A stretch of 64,000 bases of DNA. It comes from Candidatus Aminicenantes bacterium (lineage in GTDB: Bacteria; Acidobacteriota; Aminicenantia; Aminicenantales; CAVYOD01). Positions 23,253-45,326 of the stretch are shown here, one piece after another. Below the pieces are notes generated by a model. That model ran no database searches, was not told the origin of the DNA, and saw only the letters and a list, made by a program, of their open reading frames with translations. The stretch spans positions 41,173 to 105,172 of the forward strand of contig CAVYOD010000022.1 in the NCBI GenBank assembly GCA_963770045.1. Direction: 5' to 3'. Within the stretch, counting starts at the first letter, position 1. Each line of letters starts with the position of its first letter. The position numbers and the translations under genes were made by a program.

Positions 23253-23698
23253 TGAACGGCCGAAATGTCTTCACTCGAACTTTCGATATTACCGGCGGCG
23301 ACTTTAGCAAAGCCGGGAATGTCTCGACCCGGATCAAGGACATTCTCAAAGAAATCGGGATCGACTCCTCGATCATCCGCCGCACCGCCATCGCTTCCTA
23401 CGAGGCCGAGATGAATGCGGTCATGTACGCTCATAAGGCTGCGATCACACTGATCTTGAACCCGAAACTCATCGAGCTCAGAATCGATGACCAGGGGCCG
23501 GGGATCCCGGACATCGGATTGGCCATGAAGGAGGGCTATTCTACGGCCACTCAGGAGATGCGCGAGATGGGGTTTGGCGCCGGGATGGGTCTCCCCAATA
23601 TCAAGAAGAATGCCGATAAATTCGAGATCTCATCGACCTTGGGCAAGGGCACCCACCTCGATATCTTTTTTTATCTGGACCAGAAGGGAAAAGCATGA
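23249..23698 (+). CDS. anti-sigma-factor-type Ser/Thr kinase-like ATPase (HATPase_c)
   Basis: Start at ATG 23249 (ATGA overlap). G-box region RIDDQGPGIPD...GFGAGMGLPNIKK...GKGTHL. Confidence 0.7.
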   Translation: MMNGRNVFTRTFDITGGDFSKAGNVSTRIKDILKEIGIDSSIIRRTAIASYEAEMNAVMYAHKAAITLILNPKLIELRIDDQGPGIPDIGLAMKEGYSTATQEMREMGFGAGMGLPNIKKNADKFEISSTLGKGTHLDIFFYLDQKGKA

Positions 23699-25015
23699 TC
23701 CCGTATTTCCACTCGATCCGGGTTGATCGCGAAAAATGCGACGGGCGGATGAAGTGCATGCGGATCTGTCCGACCGAGGCCATCAGAGTCAGAAAAGGGA
23801 AGGCGACGATCATCCCAGAAAAATGCATCGACTGCGGAGAATGCATCACGGCCTGCCCGAACTCGGCTATTATCCCACTGACCAACCCCTTCGGAGAGCT
23901 GACCAAGTTCAGGCACACGATCGCCATCCCGTCTCCAGCGCTTTATGCCCAATTCGGCCGAGAAATTCTGCCCGGGAGAATCCTGGCCGGGTTGAAAAAA
24001 ATAGGCTTCGATGACGCCCACGACCTTGCTTTCACAGCGGGAGAGGTCAGTTTCGCGATCCAGGAATACGTCCGAGAATACAAAGGCCCCAAGCCCCTGA
24101 TATCGAGCACCTGCCCGGTTGTCGTCCGGCTCATCCAAGTCAAGTATCCTGACTTCATAGACCTTATCCTCCCGATTGATAATCCCAGGGAGATCGCCGC
24201 CCGGGAGATCAAAAAAAAGAAATCCAAGCAGTTCGATCTCGAGGAGAAAGAAATCGGCACGTTCTACCTGACTCCCTGTCCGAGCAAGATGATCTCCATC
24301 CGCCAGCCGGCCGAGAAAGGGTCAGTCTCACCTCGACGGGGCCATTGCTATCCAGGATATTTACGGGCCTCTCCTTGCCGCCATGGAAACTATCGAATCG
24401 GAGAGCTACAGGAAAGCGCTGGAGAGCGTTTGCATCCTCGGCATCGGCTGGGCCATGGTGGGAGGGATCTGCCGCACCCTCCGCATGAAGAATTCACTGG
24501 TCGTGTCCGGTTTGCCGGAAATCATCAGAGTTTTCGACGACATCGAGCGCGGAAAGCTGCGCAACATTGATTTTATCGAGGCCTACTCCTGCCCTCAGGG
24601 ATGCGTCGGGGGTTCGCTCACCGTCGAAAACGTCTATATCTCCTATAACAAAATCCTCAAGTTGATTGAGACTCTCGAATTCGAGAAAATCAAGGCGTGT
24701 CCAGACATCCGGGAAGTCAGGAACCTCTACCGGCAGCGGTATTTTCATCTCGAGGGCAAAATAGAACCCCGGCCTCTTAAACCCCTGGATGAGAATCTGG
24801 CCAGGGCCATTTCGAAAAGGAAAGAAAAAGAAAAGATCTATGAATCTTTGCCGCAAACAGACTGCGGAGCCTGCGGCTCCCCGAGCTGCCAGGCCTTCGC
24901 CGAGGATCTCGTCCAGGGAGAGGTCAAGCTCACCGACTGCATCTATAAACTTGCGGGCCTGGAGCGGGCCCGCCCAGAGAGCCTCCCCGGGCAAATAAAA
25001 AAGGATAAACCATGA
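23695..25015 (+). pseudogene. sensory-type [FeFe]-hydrogenase-like protein (2x[4Fe-4S] N-domain, H-domain with variant motifs, C-terminal Cys4 domain); one frameshift as sequenced
   Basis: ORFs 23695-24570 and 24383-25015 join at a GGG run (24319-24321). Motifs: CPTEAI/CIDCGECITACP, L1-like SSTCPVV, L2-like TPCPSK, L3-like EAYSCPQGCVGG, C-terminal CGACGSPSC-x16-C. Confidence 0.75.
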
Positions 25016-31706: not shown

Positions 31707-32667
31707 GGTGGCCTTTTACTGGTGTTCATCCTGCGGAGGATGCGAAGAATCCATCGTCGACCTAGCCGCGGACATTTTGAAAGTCGTCGCCGCGGTCGAC
31801 ATCGTCTTCTGGCCGGTCGCGTTGGATTTCAAGAAAAAGGATGTGGAGGCCATGCCCGACGGCTCGATCGCCGTGAGCTTCATCAACGGCGCTGTCCGGA
31901 CCTCAGAGCAGGAAGAGATGGCCCATCTGATGAGGAAAAAATCGCAGCTCGTCGTCGCGCACGGCGCTTGCGCTCATCTGGGCGGAATCCCCGGACTGGC
32001 CAACTTCTGGAACAAAGAGACGATCTTCCGAAAAGTCTATCACACAACCGTCTCCACGGACAACCCCAACAAGACCGTCCCTCAAGAGAAGAGCATGGTT
32101 GACAATTACGAATTAACTCTGCCCCGATTCTGGGACACGGTTTATCCCCTGGACAAGATCATCGATGTGGATTACTACCTGCCCGGGTGCGCGCCTCACC
32201 GTGATCTCATCATCAACGCCGTCAATGCCATTCTCGAAGGAAAGCTTCCGCCCAAGGGTGCCGTTCTCGCTCCGAATAAATCCTGCTGTGATGATTGCGA
32301 GAGGAACAAAACTAAGCCGGAAAAGCTCTCGATCAAGGAAGTCAAACGCCCCTACGAAATCCAGCTCGACCCGGAAAAGTGCTTCCTGGCCCAGGGGGTC
32401 ATCTGCATGGGCCCGGCCACCCGCGGCGGATGCGGCGAACGCTGCATCGAGGGCAACATGCCGTGCCGCGGCTGCATGGGGCCGACCGACCAGGTCTATG
32501 ACCAAGGGGCGAAATTCCTCTCCGCCTTTGCTTCCATCCTGGATACCAACGATGAGAAGGAAATCGAAAAAATCGTCTCGACGATCGTCGACCCTGCCGG
32601 GACCTTTTATCGTTTCAGCCTGCCCTCATCGATTCTCAGACGCAAAAGACTGGAGGCCGTAAGATGA
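31687..32667 (+). CDS. mvhG: Mvh-type (F420-non-reducing) [NiFe]-hydrogenase small subunit
   Basis: Start at ATG 31687 (GGAGG RBS; overlaps the mvhD end). [34 protein letters not shown], medial/distal cluster Cys motifs. Confidence 0.85.
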
Positions 32668-34124
32668 CCCAAAGAATAACCATCGATCCAATCACCAGGC
32701 TTGAAGGCCATGGAAAAATCGAGATCTTCTTAAACGACAAGGGCGACGTGGACCGGGCTATTCTCCAGGTCCCCGAGCTGAGGGGCTTTGAGCAGTTCGC
32801 CGTGGGACGGCCGGTGGAAGAAATGCCCCGGATCACTCCCCGCATCTGCGGAGTTTGTCCCATGGCCCACCACATGGCCGGAACCAAGGCCGTGGACGCC
32901 GTCTTTCACGTCGAACCGACACCCACCGCCCGGAAAATCCGGGAGCTGGTCTACAATGCCTTCACCATGGAGGACCACACCCTCCACTTTTTCTTCCTCG
33001 GCGGCCCGGATTTTGTCGTCGGGCCGCAGGCTCCGGCTGCTGATCGGAATATCCTGGGCGTTATCGGCAAGGTCGGGCTTGAGATCGGAGGCCGGGTCAT
33101 CCACATCCGCGAAGCGGTCCGGGAGATCATGGTCCACCTTGGCGGCAAGGCCATCCATCCGGTCCTGGGGCTGCCGGGCGGCGTCTCCAAGGCTTTGGAC
33201 GAAGAGCACAGGGTCAAGTTCCTGGAGACGGCCAAGGATGCCGTGGAGTTCGCTGAATTCGCCCTCCAGATCTTTGACGACGTCGTCCTCAAAAACAAAA
33301 CCTACGTCGATATCGTTGTCGGCGACGCTTATAAGATCAAGACCTACTACATGGGGATGGTCACGGACAAAAACCAGGTCGAATTCTATGACGGGGACAT
33401 CAAGGTTGTCGACCCAGAGGGAAAGGACTTCGCCCGTTTCAAGGCAAGCCAGTATCTCGAGCATATCGCCGAGCACGTCGAGCCCTGGACCTATGTCAAA
33501 TTCCCCTTCCTGAAGAAAGTCGGCTGGAAGGGCTTTGTCGAGGGGAAGGACAGCGGAGTTTACCGGGTAGCTCCGCTCGCCCGTCTCAATGTCGCCGACG
33601 GAATGCAGACCCCCCGGGCGCAAAAGCACTACGAGCGGATGTACGCTACCCTGGGCGGAAAGCCCGTCCACAACACCCTGGCCTTCCACTGGGCTCGCTT
33701 GATCGAGGCCCTCCAGGCCGCTGAGAAGATGGTCCAGCTTCTGGAAGACAAGTCCATTACCGGCAAAGATATCCGCACGATCCCGACCCAGACCCCGACC
33801 GAAGGGGTGGGTATCGTCGAAGCTCCCCGCGGCCTGCTGATTCACCACTACAAGACCGATGAGAAGGGGATCGTCACCGACGCCAACTTGATCGTGGCCA
33901 CGATCGGAAACGCAGCGGCCATCAACATGTCGATCGAGAAGGCGGCCAAGACGTTCATCAAGGGCGGGATCGTGTCCGAGGGACTCCTGAACATGGCCGA
34001 AATGGCCTTCCGTCCCTATGATCCCTGCCACGGCTGCGGGACTCATTCACTGCCCGGGGAAATGCCGCTGATCATCAATATCTACGACAAAGACAGAGAG
34101 CTGGTGAAGCAGCTCAAGCGATAA
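32664..34124 (+). CDS. mvhA: Mvh-type [NiFe]-hydrogenase large subunit
   Basis: 486-aa ORF. RLEGHG, N-terminal Ni-ligand motif PRICGVCPMAHH and C-terminal DPCHGCGTH followed by a 25-aa tail. Confidence 0.9.
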   Translation: MTQRITIDPITRLEGHGKIEIFLNDKGDVDRAILQVPELRGFEQFAVGRPVEEMPRITPRICGVCPMAHHMAGTKAVDAVFHVEPTPTARKIRELVYNAFTMEDHTLHFFFLGGPDFVVGPQAPAADRNILGVIGKVGLEIGGRVIHIREAVREIMVHLGGKAIHPVLGLPGGVSKALDEEHRVKFLETAKDAVEFAEFALQIFDDVVLKNKTYVDIVVGDAYKIKTYYMGMVTDKNQVEFYDGDIKVVDPEGKDFARFKASQYLEHIAEHVEPWTYVKFPFLKKVGWKGFVEGKDSGVYRVAPLARLNVADGMQTPRAQKHYERMYATLGGKPVHNTLAFHWARLIEALQAAEKMVQLLEDKSITGKDIRTIPTQTPTEGVGIVEAPRGLLIHHYKTDEKGIVTDANLIVATIGNAAAINMSIEKAAKTFIKGGIVSEGLLNMAEMAFRPYDPCHGCGTHSLPGEMPLIINIYDKDRELVKQLKR

Positions 34125-34194: not shown

Positions 34195-36180
34195 ATGAAA
34201 TCTCCGAGTTTGTCTTTACGAACGAAGCTCATCCTCAGTTTTCTTGTGGTCATCACGATCGGCGGACTTATTTCTCTCTTTTTCGGTTCCCGCCTGACCA
34301 GAGAGACCTTGATTTCGCAGGCCCAGATCAAAGTCAAACACGATCTCTCCTCGGCCTGGCTGGTTTTTAACGAAAAACTCAGCAGCATCAGGCAGGTCGT
34401 CAGCCTGACCGCCGCCCGGGAAAGCCTGCGGGAGTTGCTCAAGAACGGGCAGACGGAAACTCTTTATCGCTACCTCAAACGGGTCCGAGAGGAATCCGGG
34501 CTGGACATCCTGACGGTTACGGATGCCTCGGGCCGGGTTATCATGAGGACCAGAAACCCACAATCGTCCGGCGACAGCGAAGCCCGGGACGAACTGGTTC
34601 AGAAGGCACTCGGCAAAGGCCTTTACGCCGGGCCGGAAATTGTCCCCCGGGACGAGCTCCTTAAAGAGGGAGAGGCTTTGGCGGATCAGGCCCTCATGAA
34701 CATCGTCCCGACGGCCAAGGCGGCTCCACGCGGCGAAAACAGAGAAACGAGTGGACTGATGCTCAAAGCCGCTGCTTCCGTGACCGACGATGAGAACAGG
34801 TTGCTCGGAGTGCTCTATGGCGGCATTCTGGTCAACAGAAACTACGAGATCGTGGACAGGATCAAAGAGCTCGTCTTTAAGGGAGAAAAGTACAAGGGGA
34901 GGGAGACCGGGACTGCCACCATTTTCCAGAATGACCTCCGCATCTCAACGAATGTCAAAAACGAAAGAGGTGAACGGGCCGTCGGGACACTCGTTTCCAA
35001 CCTGGTCAAAAAGGCCGTTCTGGACGAGGGAATTCCCTGGATCGACCGGGCCTTTGTCGTCAACGACTGGTATATCACCGCCTACGAACCGATCAAAAAC
35101 ATCTCCGGCAAGATCATCGGCATTCTCTACGTCGGAATGCTGGAAAAGCCCTACCTGGACGCGGCCAACCGGCTGATGCTGACTTTTACCGTCCTGGCCG
35201 TTTTATGTGTCCTTTTCCTCCTTGTGATATTGTACTTTTCCACGGCACGGATCATCAAACCGCTTGAAAAAATGGCTGTCGCCACTCAGGAGATCGCCAA
35301 AGGAGACCTTTCGCACAAAGTCGAGATCGATTCCAAGGATGAGATCGGGCGGCTGGCCGATTCTTTCAATCAAATGACCGAGCATCTTCGGGAAGCAAAC
35401 AAAGAACTTATCGAATGGGGCACCACGCTGGAAAAAAAGGTCGACGAACGGACCAAAGAACTCGTGGAAATACAGGGACACTTGATCCAATCGGAAAAAC
35501 TCGCCTCTCTTGGCAAACTGGCCGCCGGCATCGCCCACGAAATCAACAATCCGCTGGGAGGCATCCTGATTTACAGCTACCTTATTCTGGAGGAGACTCC
35601 CAAAGACAACCCGCACTATGACAATCTTAAGAAGATCGTCAAAGAAACGACCCGTTGCAAAGACATCGTCAAGGGCCTGCTCGAATTCGCCCGCCCCAAG
35701 GAGCCGGAGATGTCCCTGACGGATATCAATGACGTCATCGAACGATCTCTTTCCATCGTCGAGCGCCAGGTGCTCTTCCAGAACATCACCATCAAAAAGG
35801 AATACTCCCGCGGCCTGCCCAGGACGATCGCCGATGGCGCTCAGCTCCAGCAGGTTTTTATCAACATGATCATCAACGCCGCTGAGGCCATGAAGGGAAA
35901 CGGAGCCCTCACGATCAAGTCTTCTCTCGAGCAGGACAAGCAATATTTGGCCATCGAATTCACTGACACGGGACACGGGATCAGAGAAGAAGACAAGAAG
36001 CGGCTCTTTGAGCCTTTTTTTACCACGAAGGAGGTGGGCAAAGGCACCGGTTTGGGCCTGGCGATCAGCTATGGCATCATCCAGAAACATAATGGCGCCA
36101 TCATTGTTTCCAGTCAGGTGGGAAAGGGCACGACCTTTAAGGTCAGATTGCCTGTGCGGAAAGAAGTCCAGCATGGTTGA
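34195..36180 (+). CDS. sensor histidine kinase (two TM segments, extracytoplasmic Cache-like domain, HAMP, HisKA, HATPase)
   Basis: 661-aa ORF. TM segments LILSFLVVITIGGLISLFF and LTFTVLAVLCVLFLLVILYF. H-box AAGIAHEINNPLGG. ATPase boxes INMIINAAEAM, DTGHGI, GTGLGLAIS. Confidence 0.88.
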   Translation: MKSPSLSLRTKLILSFLVVITIGGLISLFFGSRLTRETLISQAQIKVKHDLSSAWLVFNEKLSSIRQVVSLTAARESLRELLKNGQTETLYRYLKRVREESGLDILTVTDASGRVIMRTRNPQSSGDSEARDELVQKALGKGLYAGPEIVPRDELLKEGEALADQALMNIVPTAKAAPRGENRETSGLMLKAAASVTDDENRLLGVLYGGILVNRNYEIVDRIKELVFKGEKYKGRETGTATIFQNDLRISTNVKNERGERAVGTLVSNLVKKAVLDEGIPWIDRAFVVNDWYITAYEPIKNISGKIIGILYVGMLEKPYLDAANRLMLTFTVLAVLCVLFLLVILYFSTARIIKPLEKMAVATQEIAKGDLSHKVEIDSKDEIGRLADSFNQMTEHLREANKELIEWGTTLEKKVDERTKELVEIQGHLIQSEKLASLGKLAAGIAHEINNPLGGILIYSYLILEETPKDNPHYDNLKKIVKETTRCKDIVKGLLEFARPKEPEMSLTDINDVIERSLSIVERQVLFQNITIKKEYSRGLPRTIADGAQLQQVFINMIINAAEAMKGNGALTIKSSLEQDKQYLAIEFTDTGHGIREEDKKRLFEPFFTTKEVGKGTGLGLAISYGIIQKHNGAIIVSSQVGKGTTFKVRLPVRKEVQHG

Positions 36181-37528
36181 AGCGGCCAACATCCTGATCA
36201 TCGATGACGAAGAATCCATCCAGGATTCTCTCCGTCAGGTTCTGCGCAAAGAGGGCTTCCAGGTCAAGATTGCCAAGGACGGCCATGAAGGACTCGCCCT
36301 TTTCAACAGCGAGAATTATCAGGCGGTCTTCCTTGACCTGAGGCTTCCCGGGATCAAAGGCATGCAGGTGTTGAGCCAGATCAAAGAGACAAACCCCGAG
36401 ACTCCTGTGATTATCATCACCGGCTATGCTTCGATCGAATCGGCTGTCGAAGCCATCAAACGGGGAGCGTTTGATTATATGGCCAAGCCGTTTACGCCGG
36501 AGGAAGTGCGAATCATCACCAAAAAAGCCCTGGACAGCCGGAAAATGCTCATTGAGAATATCTATCTCCGGAGCGAGCTGGAAGCCAAGACCGATTCCCA
36601 GATGGTCGTGGGCAAGAGCATGGCCATGAAGAAGGTCATGGATATCATCTGCCGGGTGAGCCCGACCGAAACCACTGTCCTGATCACCGGAGAGAGCGGG
36701 ACGGGAAAAGAACTCATCGCCCAGGAGATCCATCGTCACAGCCTCAGGTTCAAAGCGCCTTTTGTCGTTGTCGACTGCGGGGCGCTCGTGGAGACCCTCT
36801 TCGAAAGCGAGCTTTTTGGCCACGTCAAAGGGTCCTTCACCGGGGCCCACGAAACAAAACACGGCCGTTTTGAAGTCGCCCACGGAGGCACGATTTTCTT
36901 CGACGAAATCAGCAATATCAGTCTCAACATCCAGGCCAAACTTCTCCGGGTCATCCAGGAGCGGGAAGTCACCCGGATCGGCAGCTCCAAGCCGATTAAG
37001 GTTGATGTCCGCATTCTCGCCGCGACGAACGAGAATCTGGCCGAGGCGGTAAGCAAAGGGAAGTTCAGGGAAGACCTTTTTTACCGTCTCAGCGTCGTCC
37101 CCGTCCATCTGCCGCCGCTCAGGGAAAGAAAAGAAGACGTCCCTTCTCTGGTGGAGCACTTTCTGCAAAAATATAACAAAAAGGCGAAAAAGAACATCAA
37201 AGGTATATCCCCGCAAGCCCTCAAAGCTCTGACGGAGTATGACTGGCCGGGAAACATCCGGGAGCTCGAAAACACGATTGAGCGAGCCGTTGTCCTTTCC
37301 AAGGGAAACGGTCTGGACATCGAAGACCTCATGTATCACGGCATTAGCGCCAGCTCCTCGATCCTCCCCCCGCTCGGTGGAAAATATAAAACCTTGGAAG
37401 AAATCGAAAAAGAATACATCAAGGGTGTCCTCAGGGCCCAATACGGAAACAAAAGCCGGTCCGCGAACATCCTCGGGATTGATCGTAAAACCCTCTGGGC
37501 CAAAATCAAAAGGTTCGGCTTCAAGTAA
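36173..37528 (+). CDS. sigma-54-dependent response regulator (NtrC family: REC-AAA+-Fis HTH)
   Basis: Start at ATG 36173 (overlaps the kinase stop). ILIIDDEESI..FLDLRLPG, GESGTGKE, ESELFGHVKGSFTGA, C-terminal NKSRSANILGIDRKTLWAKIKRFG. Confidence 0.9.
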   Translation: MVEAANILIIDDEESIQDSLRQVLRKEGFQVKIAKDGHEGLALFNSENYQAVFLDLRLPGIKGMQVLSQIKETNPETPVIIITGYASIESAVEAIKRGAFDYMAKPFTPEEVRIITKKALDSRKMLIENIYLRSELEAKTDSQMVVGKSMAMKKVMDIICRVSPTETTVLITGESGTGKELIAQEIHRHSLRFKAPFVVVDCGALVETLFESELFGHVKGSFTGAHETKHGRFEVAHGGTIFFDEISNISLNIQAKLLRVIQEREVTRIGSSKPIKVDVRILAATNENLAEAVSKGKFREDLFYRLSVVPVHLPPLRERKEDVPSLVEHFLQKYNKKAKKNIKGISPQALKALTEYDWPGNIRELENTIERAVVLSKGNGLDIEDLMYHGISASSSILPPLGGKYKTLEEIEKEYIKGVLRAQYGNKSRSANILGIDRKTLWAKIKRFGFK

Positions 37529-37786: not shown

Positions 37787-38902
37787 ATGAGAGTCATCAA
37801 ACTCAAGAGGGCACAATTTTACCCTTTTCTAGAAACAATCTCCAAGGAGGCGGAGCTGTGGGCGCCCGTGGCTAAGCCGAGTCACGGCGTTTCCTATGAG
37901 GCCAAGGACGCCTACTGGGTTCCTCTCTCGAACCGAGAGAAATACTCGTTCGAACTGGTCCGGGATTTTTCTCAGATCGCTATGAATGCCACTCGCACAA
38001 TCATCCCGCCCAAAAAACTCTTCCATCCCGCCTACTTCAACACGTTTTTCTTCTCCGAAGACGGCTATAAAGAGGATTTTTCTCATATCCGCAAAAGAAT
38101 CCTCTTCGGCATCCATTCCTGCGATATCCATGGCCTCCTCTTCTTGGACAAGCTCTTTTATCAGGCCTATCTGGATCCCTATTGGCTCAAGGCAAGGGAG
38201 CAAACCCTGATCCTGGGCCTCTCTTGCTGGCCGGATGAGTACTGTTTCTGCCGGTCTACGAGAACCCACCTGATTGAAGAGGGCTACGACCTGTTCTTCA
38301 CCGACCTCGGAGATTATTTCCTGGTCTGGGTGGGTTCGAGCAAAGGTCACGATCTCATCCGGTTGGCCCCGGAGATGTTCGAAGAAAATCTCTCGGATCG
38401 AGATATTCAGGCCTACATTCACTGGCAGGACGAGCGCTCGCGCGCGTTTAAAATGGAAATCAATTTCATCACCATGCCCGACCTCATGGAGCTCAACTTT
38501 CGGGCTCCCTTCTGGGAGAAAGTGGGAAATGCCTGCCTGGCCTGCGGTTCCTGCACGATGGTCTGCCCGGACTGCAATTGCTACAATATTGTCGATAAAG
38601 TCCCCTTGGGCAACAAGCCCGGCAAGAGAATTCGCCATTGGGATTCCTGCACCCTTCACGATTACTCTCTTGTGGCCGGCGGGGAAAACTTCAGGGAGAA
38701 AAAGTCGGAGAGGCTAAAGCTCTGGTACACCCACAAGCTTCAAGCTTATGTGAGCAAGTATGGAAAACCAAGCTGTGTCGGCTGCGGGCGTTGCCTGGTC
38801 ACCTGCCCGGTCGAAATCAACGTCAAGACGGTCGCCGACGCCCTCGAAGGCAAAGAAGCGGATGCTTTTTGGAACAGATTGAAACCCGAGGTGGAAAAAT
38901 GA
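37787..38902 (+). CDS. sulfhydrogenase beta-type subunit (AsrA-like 4Fe-4S protein)
   Basis: 371-aa ORF. CLACGSCTMVCPDCNC and CVGCGRCLVTCP motifs. First gene of a four-gene beta-gamma-delta-alpha arrangement. Confidence 0.8.
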   Translation: MRVIKLKRAQFYPFLETISKEAELWAPVAKPSHGVSYEAKDAYWVPLSNREKYSFELVRDFSQIAMNATRTIIPPKKLFHPAYFNTFFFSEDGYKEDFSHIRKRILFGIHSCDIHGLLFLDKLFYQAYLDPYWLKAREQTLILGLSCWPDEYCFCRSTRTHLIEEGYDLFFTDLGDYFLVWVGSSKGHDLIRLAPEMFEENLSDRDIQAYIHWQDERSRAFKMEINFITMPDLMELNFRAPFWEKVGNACLACGSCTMVCPDCNCYNIVDKVPLGNKPGKRIRHWDSCTLHDYSLVAGGENFREKKSERLKLWYTHKLQAYVSKYGKPSCVGCGRCLVTCPVEINVKTVADALEGKEADAFWNRLKPEVEK

Positions 38903-39759
38903 ACAGAGAATCCCAGTGTTTGTCCGAGGCCAATCCCTTCACGCCTGAGCAGGCCCGCATCGTCCGGACTTACCCCTTGACCCGCGACGTCAGGTTTTTC
39001 CAGGTCCGGTTCGTCGATATGGACAAAGCATTGTCCTTTAAGTATAAAGCGGGGCAGTTCGCCATGATTTCTGTCCCCGGAGCCGGAGAGGCTCCCTTCT
39101 GCCTCTCTTCGACGCCCTCGAGACCCGGCCTGCTCGAATTCTGCATCCGGAAAGTCGGGGCCGTCACCAACGCTCTTTTCCGGATGAAGGAGAACGCCTC
39201 GATCGGAGTCCGGGGTCCTTACGGCAATGGTTTTCCTGTCGAAGCCATGACGGGGAAAGATATCATCATCGTCGTGGGGGGGATGGGTGTCGCCCCGCTC
39301 CGTTCCGTGCTCCTGTACTGTTTGGATAACCGCAATCAGTTCAGGAATGTTTCCCTCCTCTACGGGGCGAAGAGACCTTCGGAAATGATCTTCCGCGAGG
39401 AGTATTTTGCCTTGAAAGAACGAGGGGACCTCGATTGCCACCTCGCCGTCGATGCCGACGACACCGGTCAATGGACCGAGAAGATCGGCGTCGTGACGAC
39501 CCTCTTCCCTTATCTGAAAAAGGTCGACCCCGCCAAAACCTTCGCCCTGGTTTGCGGCCCTCCTGTCATGTATAAATTCGTAATCAAAGAGCTGATCAAG
39601 CTTGACATTCCCAAGGAGCAGATCCTGATGACGCTGGAAAGGCGGATGAAGTGCGGTGTCGGCAAATGCGGCCATTGTGCCATCGATTATATCTACACTT
39701 GCCTCGACGGGCCGGTCTTCAACTACTGGGATGTGATTCACATGAGGGAGCTCATCTGA
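38899..39759 (+). CDS. sulfhydrogenase gamma-type subunit (AsrB/PyrK-like FAD/NAD(P)-binding [2Fe-2S] protein)
   Basis: Start at ATG 38899 (ATGA overlap). RFFQVRF..GQFAMISVPG, VVGGMGVAP, C-terminal RMKCGVGKCGHCAI...C. Confidence 0.8.
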   Translation: MNRESQCLSEANPFTPEQARIVRTYPLTRDVRFFQVRFVDMDKALSFKYKAGQFAMISVPGAGEAPFCLSSTPSRPGLLEFCIRKVGAVTNALFRMKENASIGVRGPYGNGFPVEAMTGKDIIIVVGGMGVAPLRSVLLYCLDNRNQFRNVSLLYGAKRPSEMIFREEYFALKERGDLDCHLAVDADDTGQWTEKIGVVTTLFPYLKKVDPAKTFALVCGPPVMYKFVIKELIKLDIPKEQILMTLERRMKCGVGKCGHCAIDYIYTCLDGPVFNYWDVIHMRELI

Positions 39760-39769
39760 GGAGGAGACG

Positions 39770-40552
39770 ATGGACAAAACGAAACTCAAAATCGGAGTCT
39801 ACGAGCTCACCGGGTGTGCCGGCGATGCCCTCCTGATCCTTGACTGCGAAGAAGAGATCATTAACATTTTCAAAGCGGTCGATATCGAGGCCTTCCTTAT
39901 GGCCAAGAGCGATAATCGCGACGGCAAGCTGGACGTGGCCCTGGTCGAAGGGTCGGTCTCGAGCGAGAAGGAAATCGAAGAACTCCTCGATATCCGCAAG
40001 CGATCCAAGATCGTTGTGGCCATCGGAATCTGTTCCTGCCTCGGAGGGATTCAGGCGGCCTTCCTCGATCCGAAAGATTGGAAGGAGAACTATAAAAAAA
40101 TCTATGGCGACATGGAGATGGTCAACACCAAGGCCCTCCAGCCCAAACCCATCGACGCCTACGTCAAAGTTGACTATTATCTCCCCGGCTGCCCCATCGG
40201 CAAGGATCAATTTCTCTCGACCCTCACCAGGATCATCTCGGGGAATCCCCCGGATATCTATAACTTTCCCGTCTGTGTGGAATGCAAATGGAACGAGAAT
40301 GACTGCCTTCTCAATAAGAATATCCTCTGCCTGGGCCCCCTGACCCTCGCCGGCTGTGGATCGGTCTGTATCAATTACAACCTGCCCTGCGTCGGCTGCT
40401 GGGGTCCCACCGCAGAGGCCAACCGGACCTCCGAATACGAACTCTTGATGGCCAAAGGGTTTGATGAGCGGCACATCAAAAACAAAATGGCCAACTTTAG
40501 CGGCACGCGGGTCAAAGACTTCTTCGCCGGACTGCAAGGAGACAAGAAATGA
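39770..40552 (+). CDS. [NiFe]-hydrogenase small (delta-type) subunit
   Basis: 260-aa ORF. YELTGCAGDALLIL, AIGICSCLGGIQ, YYLPGCP, CVECK...CLGP..AGCGSVC..PCVGCWGP. Confidence 0.85.
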   Translation: MDKTKLKIGVYELTGCAGDALLILDCEEEIINIFKAVDIEAFLMAKSDNRDGKLDVALVEGSVSSEKEIEELLDIRKRSKIVVAIGICSCLGGIQAAFLDPKDWKENYKKIYGDMEMVNTKALQPKPIDAYVKVDYYLPGCPIGKDQFLSTLTRIISGNPPDIYNFPVCVECKWNENDCLLNKNILCLGPLTLAGCGSVCINYNLPCVGCWGPTAEANRTSEYELLMAKGFDERHIKNKMANFSGTRVKDFFAGLQGDKK

Positions 40553-42306
40553 AGACAATAACGATAGAGCACCTGGCCAGGGTGGAAGGGAATGGAGGAG
40601 TCACCGCGACGATCGACGGAAATAAAGTCACCGAGGTGAGATTTTTCGTCAACGAAGCCCCCCGACTCATCGAACGGCTGACCGTGGGGAAAACCCCGGA
40701 AGAAGATGTCAACCTGGTCCCCAGGATTTGTGCCATCTGCACACTCTCCCACAAATATGCGGTCCTCCGAGCCATGGAGCGAGCCCTGGCTGTCAACGTC
40801 CCTCCCAAGGTAACCCTCCTCAGAGATCTGATGCACTTGGGTGAAATGATCGAAAGCCATTCTCTCCACACCTACCTGCTCGCACTCCCTGATTACCTGG
40901 GATTCCCGAATGCCATTGCCATGGCCTCCAAGCATCCCTTCGAGGCCAAGATCGCCCTGGAGATGAAGCAATTCGGCAACCACATCATGGCCATAATGAG
41001 CGGACGGTACATCCACGGGGAAAATCCCGTCATCGGAGGATTTGGAAAATACCCCTCTCGGGAGGAGCTCCTCTGGATTAAGAACCGGGCCCTCCAATTC
41101 TTGCCGTTCGCTCTGAAGACCGCAAAAATATTCGCCGAACTCTCCTATCCGGATAGCCCCGAGGCCGAGACACAATATGCCTGCTGCAATCCCGGCGACG
41201 GGAAATACGGCTTCGTGGGAGACGAGATCATCGTCTCCGGCGGCGAGATCATCGATGCTCAGGACTATCGAACCCTCACTCATGAGTACCTTGTTTCTCA
41301 TTCCTACTGCAAAAGAAGCCTCTACAAAGACAGGCCCTATTCGGTCGGAGCTCTGGCCCGTGTCAATAACCTGGGCGAACGGCTCGATGGAGAAGCGGGC
41401 AAGGCCTTCAAAAAATACTTTGGACCCCGCTGGAAAAAGAATCCACTCTTCAATAACGCGGCTCAGGCCCTCGAACTGCTTTATTCCTTCGAGAGAGTCC
41501 CCGCCGTCATCGATCAGGCTCTTAAGCTCCCGGACCCCGGCTTGGTCAAATACACCAAAACGGCGGGGAAAGGAGCCGGCGCAGTTGAGGCCCCCAGGGG
41601 CACGCTCTTTCATTATTACGAAATCACCAAAGGGAGGGTGAGCTTCAGCGACATCATCACCCCAACGGCCCAGAACGCCGACGATATCGAACGATATTGT
41701 CTCCTGGCCGCCCAGAAACTGCTCGATGCCGGGAAGGAAGAAAGCATCAGGGACAGGATGGACTTGGTCATACGTTCCTATGACCCCTGCATCAGCTGCT
41801 CCGTTCATCTGGCCGAGGTCAGCAAAGCCCCTGAGGACAACTGGAGAGAACAACTCTCTAGGATTCCTCCTGGCCAGCTGCCCGTTTTTGTCGGCTTGGG
41901 GGTGGCGAGCCGGTCCGATGACGGCGTCGGGGCCCGACTGGCTCTGGCCCTGCGCGAGTCAGGATTCAGGGATGCCTGGCTTGAGCCGGAGCCGGCTGCG
42001 AAAGACCTCTGCCAACCAGGTTATTCATCGCGTCCGATCATTTTTATCGATGCCCTGGATTTTGGAGAGAGACCTGGACGGATCGCTTTTTTTCCGCTCC
42101 GGCAAGCTGCCTGGAATTCAGGCCTGAGCCACCGTCTTTCTCCGTTTCTTGGAGCCGGACTGACTTATGCACAGCTTGAAAATTCCTATCTTCTGGGTAT
42201 TCAGCCGGAGAGACTGGAAGAGGGTGACCGGCTTTCCGAGCCGGTCCGCAAAGCCCTGGAAAGAGTTCTTGACGAGATAAAACATCGCCCAGCCTGGCGG
42301 TCATAA
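40549..42306 (+). CDS. [NiFe]-hydrogenase large (alpha-type) subunit fused in frame to a hydrogenase maturation endopeptidase-like domain
   Basis: 585-aa ORF. RICAICTLSH and DPCISCSVH (His at about aa 420). A further 165 aa carry VFVGLGVASRSDDGVG, IIFIDALDFGERPG, SHRLS and LLGIQPE..LSEPV, the HybD/HycI-type pattern. Confidence 0.75.
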   Translation: MKTITIEHLARVEGNGGVTATIDGNKVTEVRFFVNEAPRLIERLTVGKTPEEDVNLVPRICAICTLSHKYAVLRAMERALAVNVPPKVTLLRDLMHLGEMIESHSLHTYLLALPDYLGFPNAIAMASKHPFEAKIALEMKQFGNHIMAIMSGRYIHGENPVIGGFGKYPSREELLWIKNRALQFLPFALKTAKIFAELSYPDSPEAETQYACCNPGDGKYGFVGDEIIVSGGEIIDAQDYRTLTHEYLVSHSYCKRSLYKDRPYSVGALARVNNLGERLDGEAGKAFKKYFGPRWKKNPLFNNAAQALELLYSFERVPAVIDQALKLPDPGLVKYTKTAGKGAGAVEAPRGTLFHYYEITKGRVSFSDIITPTAQNADDIERYCLLAAQKLLDAGKEESIRDRMDLVIRSYDPCISCSVHLAEVSKAPEDNWREQLSRIPPGQLPVFVGLGVASRSDDGVGARLALALRESGFRDAWLEPEPAAKDLCQPGYSSRPIIFIDALDFGERPGRIAFFPLRQAAWNSGLSHRLSPFLGAGLTYAQLENSYLLGIQPERLEEGDRLSEPVRKALERVLDEIKHRPAWRS

Positions 42307-42496: not shown

Positions 42497-42607
42497 CCAG
42501 ACCCTCTCGGCGAACTCAAGACTCGAGGGCAGGCGCGCTGAATGTCTTGTTATTCGATTATTATCAACAACTTAGAGATAAGCTCTTTTTTCTTAGCAGC
42601 CCAAGGT

Positions 42608-42623
42608 TGGCACATTAATTGCT
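42608..42623 (+). promoter_or_regulatory. sigma-54 (-24/-12) promoter upstream of the REC/REC/hybrid-kinase/hyp gene string
   Basis: TGGCAC-ATTAA-TTGCT, a near-perfect consensus, about 28 nt before ATG 42650. Confidence 0.75.
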
Positions 42624-42649
42624 CTAGGCTGAATATCAGGGATCTCAAG

Positions 42650-43021
42650 ATGGCCGAGCTAGAGAAAAGAGTTTTGATCATTGACGCCGACCCGAAGGCG
42701 AGGAGAGATCTGGCTTCCTCCTTGAAAACTGAAGATTATCATGTTGAAACCGGCCGGGGGCTTTCCGAGGCCATCAAGATGATTTCCCAAGGTTGCTTCG
42801 AATGCCTGATCCTCGACGTGGACCTTCCCGAGATGAAGGGCTATGAGGCCGTCTCGATCCTGAAAAACCTCGATCCGCGCTTAAAAATCATCATGACCAC
42901 GGCGAGGAATAGCAAACGTCTCGAAGCCAAGGTCAGAGAACAGGACATCTTCTTCTATTTCATCAAGTCGTTCGGAAAAGATGAATTGAAGCTCGCAATC
43001 AATAACGCCTTTAACCAGTAA
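42650..43021 (+). CDS. single-domain response regulator (REC only)
   Basis: Start moved to ATG 42650, because the longer ORF would contain the sigma-54 promoter. VLIIDADP...LILDVDLPEMKG...IMTTA...K. Confidence 0.8.
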   Translation: MAELEKRVLIIDADPKARRDLASSLKTEDYHVETGRGLSEAIKMISQGCFECLILDVDLPEMKGYEAVSILKNLDPRLKIIMTTARNSKRLEAKVREQDIFFYFIKSFGKDELKLAINNAFNQ

Positions 43022-43041
43022 AGGAGGAAGGAGAAAACACC

Positions 43042-43449
43042 ATGGCAAAAACCGCGCCAAAGATTTTGGTCATTGATGACGACCCCGATTTCAGGGATGC
43101 CGTGACCCCGATCCTAAAATCGGCCCTGTATGAAGTCGCGACCGCCGCAAACCCCACAGAGGCAAAGGCCAAGATTCTTTCGGAAAAACCCGACCTCATT
43201 CTCCTGGATATCATGATGGACAGCCTCTTTGACGGATTTTCCCTCTGCCATGCCATCAAGACATCTAAAGAATATAAAGACTTCAAAGACACGCCGGTCA
43301 TTTTCGTCTCAGCCGTCAAAGAAATCGCGGGCACCCGATTTCAATTCAAGGGCGATGAACAGGGCATGACCGGTCCCGATGATTACATCGACAAGCCGGT
43401 CAAGCCCGACGATCTGCTGGCCAGGATCGCAAAGCTCCTCAATAAATAA
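43042..43449 (+). CDS. single-domain response regulator (REC only)
   Basis: 135-aa ORF with GGAGGAAGGAG RBS. ILVIDDDPD...LILLDIMMD...IFVSA...DYIDKP. Confidence 0.85.
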   Translation: MAKTAPKILVIDDDPDFRDAVTPILKSALYEVATAANPTEAKAKILSEKPDLILLDIMMDSLFDGFSLCHAIKTSKEYKDFKDTPVIFVSAVKEIAGTRFQFKGDEQGMTGPDDYIDKPVKPDDLLARIAKLLNK

Positions 43450-43467
43450 GGGCGTCATCTCGGCCTG

Positions 43468-43608
43468 GGGGACGTTCCCCAAGGGGCTACCCTGTTCTTC
43501 TTAACAACCGATCATCATCCCTAAGTTCCGTTCGGTCTGATTTTCTTTCTTGACAATTCTGACGCAATGATAAAAATCGCAAAGGATGTCCCCTTGGGGA
43601 ACGTCCCC
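43468..43608. repeat. 19-bp perfect inverted repeat bracketing a 103-bp spacer with a promoter-like sequence
   Basis: Left arm 43468-43486 GGGGACGTTCCCCAAGGGG. Right arm 43590-43608 is its exact reverse complement. The spacer contains TTGACA (43550-43555) followed 15-16 nt later by TAAAAAT. Confidence 0.6.
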
Positions 43609-43719
43609 TATCCACCGTGACTGCGGAAAACACAGATTTTAGCTGAAAATGAAGCTATTATTGGAGTAAAATAAAGGGCTCCCGAGGGCGGGAGGGCAAT
43701 CCCAGAGGAGGCATGTCAG

Positions 43720-44817
43720 GTGGAAGAAAAAAGGCCGGTTATTCTCGTCATCGACGACGAGGAAGCCATGCGGGACTCTTGCTCCCAGATCCTCACCAAA
43801 AGCAACTTCCAGGCTGTAACGGCTGAGGACGGCTCGATTGGCCTGCAGAAACTCAAAGACCTTAAGCCCGAAGTGGCTCTGATCGACCTCAAAATGCCCG
43901 GAATCAGCGGCTTTGACGTATTGGAGAAGCTGCCCGAAATCGACCCCCATATCATTCCCATCGTCATCACCGGTTATGCGACTGTGGACTCAGCCGTCGA
44001 AGCGATGAAAAAAGGGGCCTATGACTTCTTGCCCAAACCTTTCACCCCTGAAGAACTGCGCATCATCATCAAACGCGCCCTGGAGAGGCGAAAACTGATC
44101 CTGGAAGCAGAAACCCTGCGGCAAGAGAAAAAGCTGATGGAAGAGAATTTTATAACGCTGGTGTCCCATCAGCTGCGGTCCCCTCTCGTGGCCATCCAGC
44201 AATATTTTGAAGTGATCCTCGCCGGGATGGCCGGCCAGGTCGACGAAAAAACAAAGGATATGATCCTTCGGGCCCGAGAGAGGCTGGATGGACTTCTCAA
44301 GTTGATCACCGATTGGCTGGATCTGGCCCGGATCAGCCGCGGCCGGATCGTTGACAAGTTCAGGCTATTCGACCTGAAGAGTCTGCTGGAAAAACAAATC
44401 GAGTTCATGCGTCCGTTCGCGCAGGAAAACTCCGTTTCGTTGGAATTGGCCGCCCCTTCGGCTTCGGTCAGCATTCAGGGGGACGAGCAGACCCTGGAAC
44501 AGGTTTTCTCCAACCTGATCAATAACGCCATCAAGTTTAACCGGCCGCAAGGGGTTGTGACGGTTCGCCTGAAGGAGGAGCCGGGCCTCGTTATTATCGA
44601 GGTCGAGGATACGGGAATAGGCATTGCTAAAGAACATATCCCCAACCTCTTCGCCCAATTCTATCAAGTGAACAGGAGAGAAGGACAGAAATACAAGAGC
44701 ACGGGACTCGGCCTTTCCATTGCCAAGAAGATCGTTGAAGCCCATAACGGTTCCATTCAGGTTACGAGTGAACTGGGGAAAGGCAGCACCTTCCGAGTTC
44801 TGTTGCCCAGATCATAA
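43720..44817 (+). CDS. hybrid REC-HisKA-HATPase sensor kinase
   Basis: 365-aa ORF (GTG start). VILVIDDEE..LIDLKMPG, H-box LVSHQLRSPL, NLINNAIKF, DTGIGI, GLGLSIAKK. Confidence 0.88.
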   Translation: MEEKRPVILVIDDEEAMRDSCSQILTKSNFQAVTAEDGSIGLQKLKDLKPEVALIDLKMPGISGFDVLEKLPEIDPHIIPIVITGYATVDSAVEAMKKGAYDFLPKPFTPEELRIIIKRALERRKLILEAETLRQEKKLMEENFITLVSHQLRSPLVAIQQYFEVILAGMAGQVDEKTKDMILRARERLDGLLKLITDWLDLARISRGRIVDKFRLFDLKSLLEKQIEFMRPFAQENSVSLELAAPSASVSIQGDEQTLEQVFSNLINNAIKFNRPQGVVTVRLKEEPGLVIIEVEDTGIGIAKEHIPNLFAQFYQVNRREGQKYKSTGLGLSIAKKIVEAHNGSIQVTSELGKGSTFRVLLPRS

Positions 44818-44834: not shown

Positions 44835-45326
44835 ATGAAAACTCTTGTCCTCGGCTTAGGAAATGACCTCTATGGAGACGACGCGGTGGGACTCCGGGTC
44901 GTCCGGACCCTCAAGGAACAATCCGCCCTCTCTCGAAACCCGGCGGCCGCAAACGAAGAGGTCGGTTTTGAAGAATGCTCTCTGACGGGCCTTGCCCTCC
45001 TCGACGTTATCATCGGCTACGATGCGCTCGTGATCATCGATACGATCAAGAAACCGGATCCCCTGACCGGCCGGATCCATGTCCTCGACGGAAAAGACCT
45101 GCGGGCCATCCCCGGACCTTCCCCCCATTATGTCTCCGTGCCCCAGATGATCGAGATCGGCCGAGCCTCGGGAGTCCATGTGCCGTCCACGATCAAGGTC
45201 GTCGCCGTCGAAGCCAAAAACATCTACAATCTGGGTGAGGGGCTGAGCCCGGAGATGCGAAAGAGCATCCCTGCGGTCATCAAAAAAGTGAAAGAAGTCC
45301 TGATCTCCCTAAAAGGTAATAACTGA
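44835..45326 (+). CDS. stand-alone hydrogenase maturation endopeptidase (HyaD/HybD/HycI family)
   Basis: 163-aa ORF. LVLGLGNDLYGDDAVG, LVIIDTIK, SPHYVS, VVAVEAK..LSPEM. Confidence 0.85.
   Translation: MKTLVLGLGNDLYGDDAVGLRVVRTLKEQSALSRNPAAANEEVGFEECSLTGLALLDVIIGYDALVIIDTIKKPDPLTGRIHVLDGKDLRAIPGPSPHYVSVPQMIEIGRASGVHVPSTIKVVAVEAKNIYNLGEGLSPEMRKSIPAVIKKVKEVLISLKGNN

Follow-up and report, generated by a model that had tools for sequence, protein, structure and literature searches.

The closest described counterparts of the gene considered here are the alpha subunit of Pyrococcus furiosus SHI and Thermococcus kodakarensis HyhL. That gene, a [NiFe]-hydrogenase large-subunit gene (hydA) joined in frame to a maturation endopeptidase, lies at positions 40549–42306 of a 64,000-nucleotide stretch from a Candidatus Aminicenantes bacterium (contig CAVYOD010000022.1, positions 41,173 to 105,172 of the forward strand); the whole of this stretch is called the window below. 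In the maturation of such enzymes, Fe(CN)2CO goes in first and Ni second, with an extension keeping the active site open, Ni acts as the recognition template of an endopeptidase, the endopeptidase cuts after the His three residues past Cys-4, and removal of the extension lets Cys-4 close the active site (PMC6769069). Escherichia coli HybC is cut at an H–V site, the extension of immature HyhL forms a strand that holds the active site open, and the endopeptidases are generally specific to one large subunit (PMC6769069); a 3B and a 4D enzyme of T. kodakarensis share one activating endopeptidase (PMC7654741). P. furiosus SHI, whose complete tail after the His is the four-residue -VVRL, is inactive without FrxA or HycI, which remove that tail, and the protease was the sole indispensable foreign accessory gene for producing the enzyme in E. 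coli (PMC2865534).

A sequence-only reading of the window had proposed that the gene is a true in-frame fusion, and that its product is a precursor processed by its own protease domain. The fusion holds, and it proved to be a property of a lineage. For the processing, the reading we favour is a Ni-gated removal of the 165-residue extension after His420 by the protease domain that it contains, with a free protease encoded further downstream serving MvhA; by analogy with the described systems, we put its probability at roughly 0.68.

The fused gene and its two halves

The fused gene is the fourth and last of a hydB-hydG-hydD-hydA operon. Its parts are the following.

40549..42306, + strand: fused gene (large-subunit precursor, connector and endopeptidase), 585 amino acids (aa), ATG start; from the list of open reading frames (ORFs) and the sequence
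40549..41808, + strand: group 3b large-subunit domain, aa 1–420, last residue His420; from NCBIfam, PDB and Foldseek matches
41806..41811, + strand: predicted scissile bond His420-Leu421; from homology to the H–V site of P. furiosus SHI and E. coli HybC
41809..41883, + strand: connector, aa 421–445, a tail-like LAEV followed by a conserved KAP..W..L helix; from conservation and AlphaFold2 (AF2)
41884..42303, + strand: HycI-type maturation endopeptidase domain, aa 446–585; from TIGR00072, a family profile against the PDB, and Foldseek
41920–41922, 42049–42051 and 42130–42132, + strand: metal-ligand positions D458, D501 and H528 of the fused protease

Both Ni-ligand motifs named in the sequence-only reading are present, RICAIC at aa 59–64 and DPCISCSVH at aa 412–420, with the codon of His420 at 41806–41808. 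The tail behind it runs for 165 residues and holds VFVGLGVASRSDDGVG, IIFIDALDFGERPG, LSHRLS and LLGIQPE; every motif that had been quoted for it was found in the sequence. The stretch between the His codon and the first protease strand had been described as free of starts and stops, and indeed neither a stop nor an ATG, GTG or TTG occurs between codon 421 (41809) and codon 449. The earliest start-like codons after His420, TTG at 41896 and GTG at 41902, both fall within the first protease strand and its GxG motif, and no intergenic remnant was found at the junction of the two domains.

By its sequence and predicted structure, the hydrogenase half is a complete group 3b (sulfhydrogenase-type) [NiFe]-hydrogenase large subunit. 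The assignment follows from its best solved relatives in the PDB, T. kodakarensis HyhL (5yxy, 1.6e-94) and P. furiosus SHI alpha (9nez, 1.8e-94), from the far weaker match of MvhA-type chains (2.6e-48), and from the superposition of the AF2 model of the fused protein (predicted local distance difference test, pLDDT, 77.9) on SHI alpha (9nf0, Foldseek TM 0.88). RICAIC and DPCISCSVH are invariant across the family, and the processed P. furiosus SHI alpha chain (9e15_B) stops at the His aligned with H420. The NCBIfam scores, 343.5 bits for sulfhyd_HydA (aa 3–423) and 339.1 bits for sulfhyd_ShyA, do not reach the equivalog cut-offs of 880 and 700 bits, so that this half is related to the Pyrococcus enzymes at the level of the family and is not their equivalog.

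Profile and model comparisons identify the fused tail as a genuine maturation endopeptidase (MEROPS A31) domain with its ligand positions intact and with predicted catalysis. Hidden Markov models (HMMs) were run on this region, a check that had been suggested. TIGR00072 scores 52.1 bits on the whole protein and 56.1 bits on the C-terminal 164 aa alone (profile positions 3–142 of 145), above its curated cut-off of 47.45 bits; Pfam PF01750 scores 21.1 bits on the fused sequence, just short of its gathering score of 23. Many members of the fused family carry a precomputed PF01750 match. A profile of the family's C-terminal region matched HycI structures over the whole domain (5zby, 4.8e-10; 2e85, 7.6e-10), with HybD structures scoring below them, and the DDG, xDA and sH motifs align with those of 2e85 and 5zby. 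The family profile was required for this comparison, as phmmer with the protease domain alone gave no meaningful match in the PDB.

The structure prediction that had also been suggested bore out the endopeptidase fold: with the AF2 model of aa 405–585 (pLDDT 77.8) as query, the ten best Foldseek matches in the PDB were all maturation endopeptidases (E 7e-9 to 2e-5, probability 1.00, TMt 0.52–0.68). The three metal-ligand positions that had been recognised in the tail (Asp, Asp, His) are D458, D501 and H528, and they are invariant; the corresponding ligands of E. coli HycI/HybD we take to be Asp/Glu16, Asp62 and His90/93. A31 endopeptidases usually have a free-standing gene of their own, of about 150–165 aa, and the fused domain does not.

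Conservation of the fusion and its recurrence in group 3b

The 120 best clusters at 90% identity from a collection of 5.8 billion proteins are all 575–602 aa long and cover 98–100% of the query at 63–99% identity. Among GTDB species representatives, 276 loci with a relative were found, of which the best 80 were examined and 79 were informative. All of the best 80 match through the protease domain; one is a closed chromosome of 4.07 Mb (91% identity), and their labels are mostly Candidatus Aminicenantes, many others being non-specific (e.g. ‘uncultured Eubacteriales’). Both domains lie in a single stop-free frame behind hydB-hydG-hydD at 76 of the 79 informative loci. The fusion that was to be sought in related genomes is thus present there, and close relatives, which might all have turned out to encode two genes, are fused. 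It is conserved across the whole lineage (Aminicenantes) and is not peculiar to one genome, a point that the sequence-only reading had missed.

A sequencing or assembly artefact, or two genes run together, is excluded by the continuous frame in at least 120 clusters and 76 species representatives. The claim of a true in-frame fusion was borne out, as the frame is kept at 54–99% identity in hundreds of sequences, and an indel artefact is excluded because the relatives are fused, not split. None of the refuting conditions named in the sequence-only reading came about. The three remaining loci (L050:8001-9740, L069:8001-9740 and L076:1755-3359), from Aminicenantes or Acidobacteriota metagenome-assembled genomes (MAGs), carry isolated in-frame TAG, TGA or TAA codons at aa 239, 259, 391 and 451, and none of the three has a clean split between the domains. 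Selenocysteine or other recoding was rejected for these stops, since three different codons are involved at unrelated conserved positions; they are probably pseudogenes or assembly or consensus errors.

Ten residues are invariant over 54 family members (H420, W432, G449, G451, D457, D458, G461, D501, G510 and H528), and the protease ligand motifs are present in all 120 homologues. In codon analysis of pairs with unsaturated synonymous divergence, the ratio of non-synonymous to synonymous substitution rates (dN/dS) was 0.17–0.25 for the protease domain and 0.06–0.11 for the hydrogenase domain. The protease domain is under purifying selection, looser than that on the hydrogenase half.

The junction is conserved as well. 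The residue before the predicted cut (P1) is His in 120 of 120 homologues, the residue after it (P1') is Met in 107 and Leu in 8, and the distance from the His to the GxG motif is 27–28 aa in all 120. Within the connector W432 is invariant, and conservation reaches at least 90% at A427, P428 and L436. What follows the His is therefore no loose linker, fixed as it is in length and conserved in sequence, which had also been overlooked. These constraints suggest that the connector is docked in a defined geometry rather than being a floppy tether, and its 27–28 aa would in principle be long enough for cutting in cis. AF2 gives a pLDDT below 50 for aa 416–424 and about 84 for aa 431–450, and predicts M/L-A-E-V directly after the His as a short strand. 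In sequence this junction resembles the four-residue archaeal tails -VVRL and -VARL (the tail of T. kodakarensis HyhL reads VAR- in the PDB alignment), and the modelled strand recalls the strand-forming extension of immature HyhL.

Typical group 3b large subunits have 0–12 residues beyond the His in a neighbour-joining (NJ) tree of 145 large-subunit representatives, which serves as a rough guide only; over the group as a whole, extension lengths span 0 to about 200 residues. When sequences are clustered at 50%, the query's own fused clade consists of P0121, P0122 (annotated Candidatus Eisenbacteria) and a fragment. P0122 (616 aa) has the fusion type found in Aminicenantes, with an insert of 38 residues, rich in Gly, Ala and Arg, between the tail-like strand and the Trp helix, so that the connector tolerates a large insertion at that one point.

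A second fused set (P0169, P0257, P0260, P0270 and P0282–P0308, including P0292; about 596–626 aa) carries a HybD/HupD-like domain and stands elsewhere in the NJ tree, amid unfused sequences. Its large subunit ends in DPCISCATH, the junction reads H followed by FL.L, with Phe at P1', and the linker of 35–45 residues shows no sequence conservation across the four members that were compared. About 30 fused clusters, of 596–621 aa, were found among the matches listed in a search with P0270, only two of them organism-labelled, both Actinobacteria. These fused relatives are interleaved with unfused proteins of 431–435 aa, whose labelled members include Acidimicrobiia, Egibacteraceae, Armatimonadota, Dormiibacterota and Dehalococcoidia. 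The protease domain looks degenerate in some members of the set, P0257 and P0260 lacking the DDG motif.

A single origin of all fused 3b forms was rejected, because the HMM of the Aminicenantes domain gives 85 bits with P0122 versus 12 bits with P0270 and because the two sets occupy separate positions among unfused sequences in the NJ tree. We read these sequence comparisons as pointing to at least two independent origins of the fusion in group 3b, and the recurrence in a second set argues that the architecture is useful. That the fusion arose when hydA merged with a protease gene lying next to it downstream found no support in the closest unfused relative, P0123 (locus L081), where neither a protease gene nor a remnant of one was found 3' of hydA.

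Other arrangements were seen among the 3b large subunits. P0146 (549 aa) has a C-terminal extension of 134 residues that matches Pfam FmdE (PF02663, 26 bits; gathering score 22.9) and not a protease. In P0159, P0181 and P0196 (583–588 aa), about 170 N-terminal residues correspond to the N-terminal portion of the small (delta) subunit; these proteins end exactly at the His, so that they lack an extension and can presumably do without a protease. In the NJ tree, 3b-like subunits with no tail after the His of DPCxxCxxH form a large block, most others having 4–12 residues. P0312 (1006 aa), which is of the fused type, has an N-terminal acetate-kinase domain (PF00871) before the hydrogenase and protease domains; it may result from genes merged in gene calling or represent one more fusion.

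Proposed processing of the precursor, and the stand-alone protease

The remaining genes of the operon and those that bear on the free protease are these.

37787..38902, + strand: hydB-like subunit (4Fe-4S dicluster, Fer4_22), first gene of the operon; Pfam PF17179, 4.9e-32
38899..39759, + strand: hydG-like subunit (FAD/NAD(P)-binding, Fe-S); Pfam NAD_binding_1, FAD_binding_6 and DHODB_Fe-S_bind, and conserved synteny
39770..40552, + strand: hydD-like [NiFe]-hydrogenase small subunit; Pfam Oxidored_q6, 3.2e-24, and conserved synteny
32664..34124, + strand: MvhA-like (group 3c-type) large subunit; RICGVC, and DPCHGCGTH followed by SLPGEMPLIINIYDKDRELVKQLKR, an ordinary extension of 25 aa
44835..45326, + strand: stand-alone HybD/HupD-type maturation endopeptidase; TIGR00072 97.5 bits (cut-off 47.45), hupD 55.6 bits
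45329..46412, + strand: hypB and hypA (Ni-insertion accessory) ORFs, right after the stand-alone protease; named from translations, without HMM

The stop of the hydD-like gene overlaps the start of the fused gene, and a hydB-like ortholog stands upstream of the fused gene in all related loci with enough flank. Upstream of the MvhA-like gene are NuoE/F-, HdrA-, MvhD- and MvhG-like ORFs (names from translations, without HMM), and hypA orthologs occupy the same position in related loci.

The stand-alone protease reported in the sequence-only reading is real, at 97.5 bits with TIGR00072, and its proposed service to MvhA fits the synteny. Over 8 kb around the fused operon at 35 related loci with full flanks, mvhA and a free protease were both present at 16, neither at 15, the protease alone at 4 and mvhA alone at none (Fisher p = 1.9e-6); in other words, the free protease accompanies mvhA at 16 of 16 loci and is absent from 15 of the 19 loci at which mvhA is not nearby. 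From this co-occurrence, the protease at 44835–45326 probably serves MvhA.

In the processing that we favour, the extension of the precursor would consist of the tail-like LAEV strand, a conserved connector of about 24 residues and a complete HycI-type domain, instead of a peptide of 4–12 residues. The Hyp machinery would insert Fe(CN)2CO and then Ni while this extension held the active site open; the protease domain, either the precursor's own or that of a neighbouring precursor, would recognise the Ni-loaded site through D458, D501 and H528 and would cut after His420. The 165-residue fragment would then depart, and the 420-residue HydA would close on its cofactor and assemble with HydD, HydB and HydG. 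The fusion would in this way supply a dedicated protease in an amount equal to that of its substrate, with the HybD-like protein at 44835–45326 left to serve the MvhA hydrogenase. We infer by analogy that cleavage occurs, that it falls at H420-L421 and that the fused domain is its agent. Ligand invariance and a dN/dS of about 0.2 argue that the fused domain is itself active, and the many related loci whose fused operon has no free protease inside 8 kb were counted in favour of its independence from such a protease.

Several points weigh against self-processing. The PF01750 score falls just below its gathering threshold, and the fused domain does not conserve the Asn with which GxGN usually ends. 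The group does not rely on processing throughout, as some of its large subunits stop at the His and can do without a protease. That cleavage takes place, where it falls and that it depends on Ni are argued by analogy for every member of the family, and the free protease in the genome could in principle do the cutting.

An alternative that we regard as unlikely is that the domain is never removed, either acting as a structural, regulatory or Ni-sensing module or simply being carried by an enzyme that works unprocessed. This would suit the existence of 3b subunits that end at the His without processing, a connector conserved in sequence and length, as expected of a docked and not of a disposable segment, and the partly degenerate protease domains of the second lineage (no DDG motif in P0257 and P0260). 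A non-catalytic module would, however, have no reason to keep ligand positions that are invariant in 120 of 120 homologues. Moreover, the processed SHI alpha chain of P. furiosus ends at the aligned His, SHI gains activity only once its tail has been taken off (PMC2865534), and it is the removal of the extension that lets Cys-4 close the site (PMC6769069).

Cutting after His420 by another protease, the one at 44835–45326 or a different one, with the fused domain serving as an enlarged intramolecular chaperone or a decoy, seems to us quite unlikely. It draws on the free A31 protease encoded 2.5 kb downstream and on the T. kodakarensis endopeptidase that serves two hydrogenases (PMC7654741). Yet at 15 of the 35 related loci the 8 kb around the fused operon contain no stand-alone protease, and where there is one, it tracks mvhA; the free protease is of the HybD/HupD type and the fused one of the HycI type, and the latter shows the ligand invariance and low dN/dS given above.

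Very improbable, in our judgement, is that the fusion is mainly a means of co-expressing a protease that, once released, matures other hydrogenases such as Mvh. The released fragment would be a complete protease domain, and action in trans between precursors is possible, but a separate protease co-occurs with mvhA at 16 of 16 loci, the fused operon of many species has no mvhA in its vicinity, and endopeptidases are generally specific for one large subunit (PMC6769069). Lastly, a lost stop or an indel that merged two genes is always conceivable beforehand and might be suspected from the scattered in-frame stops at 3 of the 79 related MAG loci, but this explanation has a negligible chance, given the same frame in more than 120 independent clusters and 76 species at 54–99% identity from many studies, a junction without a start codon or an intergenic remnant, and stops in the three MAGs (aa 239, 259, 391 and 451) that fall at unrelated places, none of them at the domain boundary.

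Removal of the extension by its own protease domain could be more elaborate than set out above. The tethered domain might act as a single-use, Ni-gated checkpoint, which docks via the connector, senses Ni, cuts after His420 in cis and leaves, blocks docking of the small subunit until then, and evolved at least twice in group 3b from two protease subfamilies. We offer this fuller version tentatively and would put it somewhat below even odds.

Some further features of the surroundings may be recorded. In many Aminicenantes loci, mvhA, hydBGDA, the free protease and hypA follow in this order at similar spacing. Histidine-kinase- and response-regulator-like ORFs (34195–37528 and 42542–44817, from translations alone) stand between the mvh, hydBGDA and protease-hyp genes of the window, including a look-alike of a sigma-54-type activator at about 36200–37528 (by translation alone). 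At 23695–25015, two overlapping ORFs of the same strand (23695–24570 and 24383–25015) look like one Fe-S or Cys-rich protein split by a frameshift; they lie upstream of PHP-domain, ATPase-like and NuoE/NuoF-like ORFs (by reading) and of the HdrA-MvhDGA cluster.

Significance and comparison with described systems

Both components of the fused protein are textbook matter; the new part is their covalent and conserved fusion, which is not categorically new. No description of a natural fusion of large subunit and protease was found in the full-text literature within reach, a coverage outside which most papers in subscription journals lie, so that this absence is no proof. Annotation pipelines name the fused proteins of both lineages ‘hydrogenase maturation protease’ or ‘sulfhydrogenase subunit alpha’; as they already label such proteins by either domain, the architecture is visible in databases. 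These inconsistent names can mislead metabolic reconstructions of Aminicenantes.

A fusion that is lineage-wide and apparently re-invented elsewhere speaks for tethering as a viable, selected way to mature a hydrogenase. The complex of protease and substrate is normally transient, and recognition of the Ni-loaded large subunit by the endopeptidase, as well as its catalysis, is still debated (PMC6769069). If self-processing is true, a ligand mutant of the precursor would be a ready-made, covalently tethered enzyme–substrate complex, suited to the mechanism of A31 enzymes and their recognition surface. The architecture also suggests that 3b hydrogenases could be produced heterologously in a simple way, with no matching protease to be supplied. 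The matter is of interest to specialists in hydrogenase maturation, with practical use in heterologous expression.

Compared with SHI alpha (PF0894) and HyhL, the gene of the window is alike in belonging to group 3b, in its four-gene operon and in its DPCISCSVH end (PMC2865534). It also shares a short tail-like segment after the His, -VVRL and -VARL in the archaeal enzymes and -LAEV or -MAEV here. SHI alpha and HyhL depend on an A31 endopeptidase (FrxA, HycI) that cuts after this His, a dependence that the fused protein would share by analogy. Their protease is, however, the product of a separate gene elsewhere and their extension has 4 residues, whereas the extension here has 165, with the protease inside.

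The protease half is nearest to HycI of E. coli (2e85, 2i8l) and T. kodakarensis (5zby), with which it shares the best profile matches (about 1e-9 to 5e-10), the ligand motifs and the predicted fold. It differs from them in not being a free protein of about 155 aa, in the unconserved Asn of GxGN and in a conserved Trp-containing helix before strand 1, and its identity with HycI is only about 20%. The 3b proteins fused to a HybD/HupD-like domain (P0270, P0260, P0292) have the same order, a 3b large subunit followed in frame by a maturation protease; unlike the Aminicenantes proteins, they have a protease of another subtype, a longer linker and Phe at P1'. Finally, a Salmonella complex of a HyaD-type protease with its large subunit has reportedly held protease and substrate together as one stable entity. 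Engineered or trapped complexes of this kind are non-covalent or laboratory constructs, whereas the tether in the Aminicenantes protein is natural and covalent.

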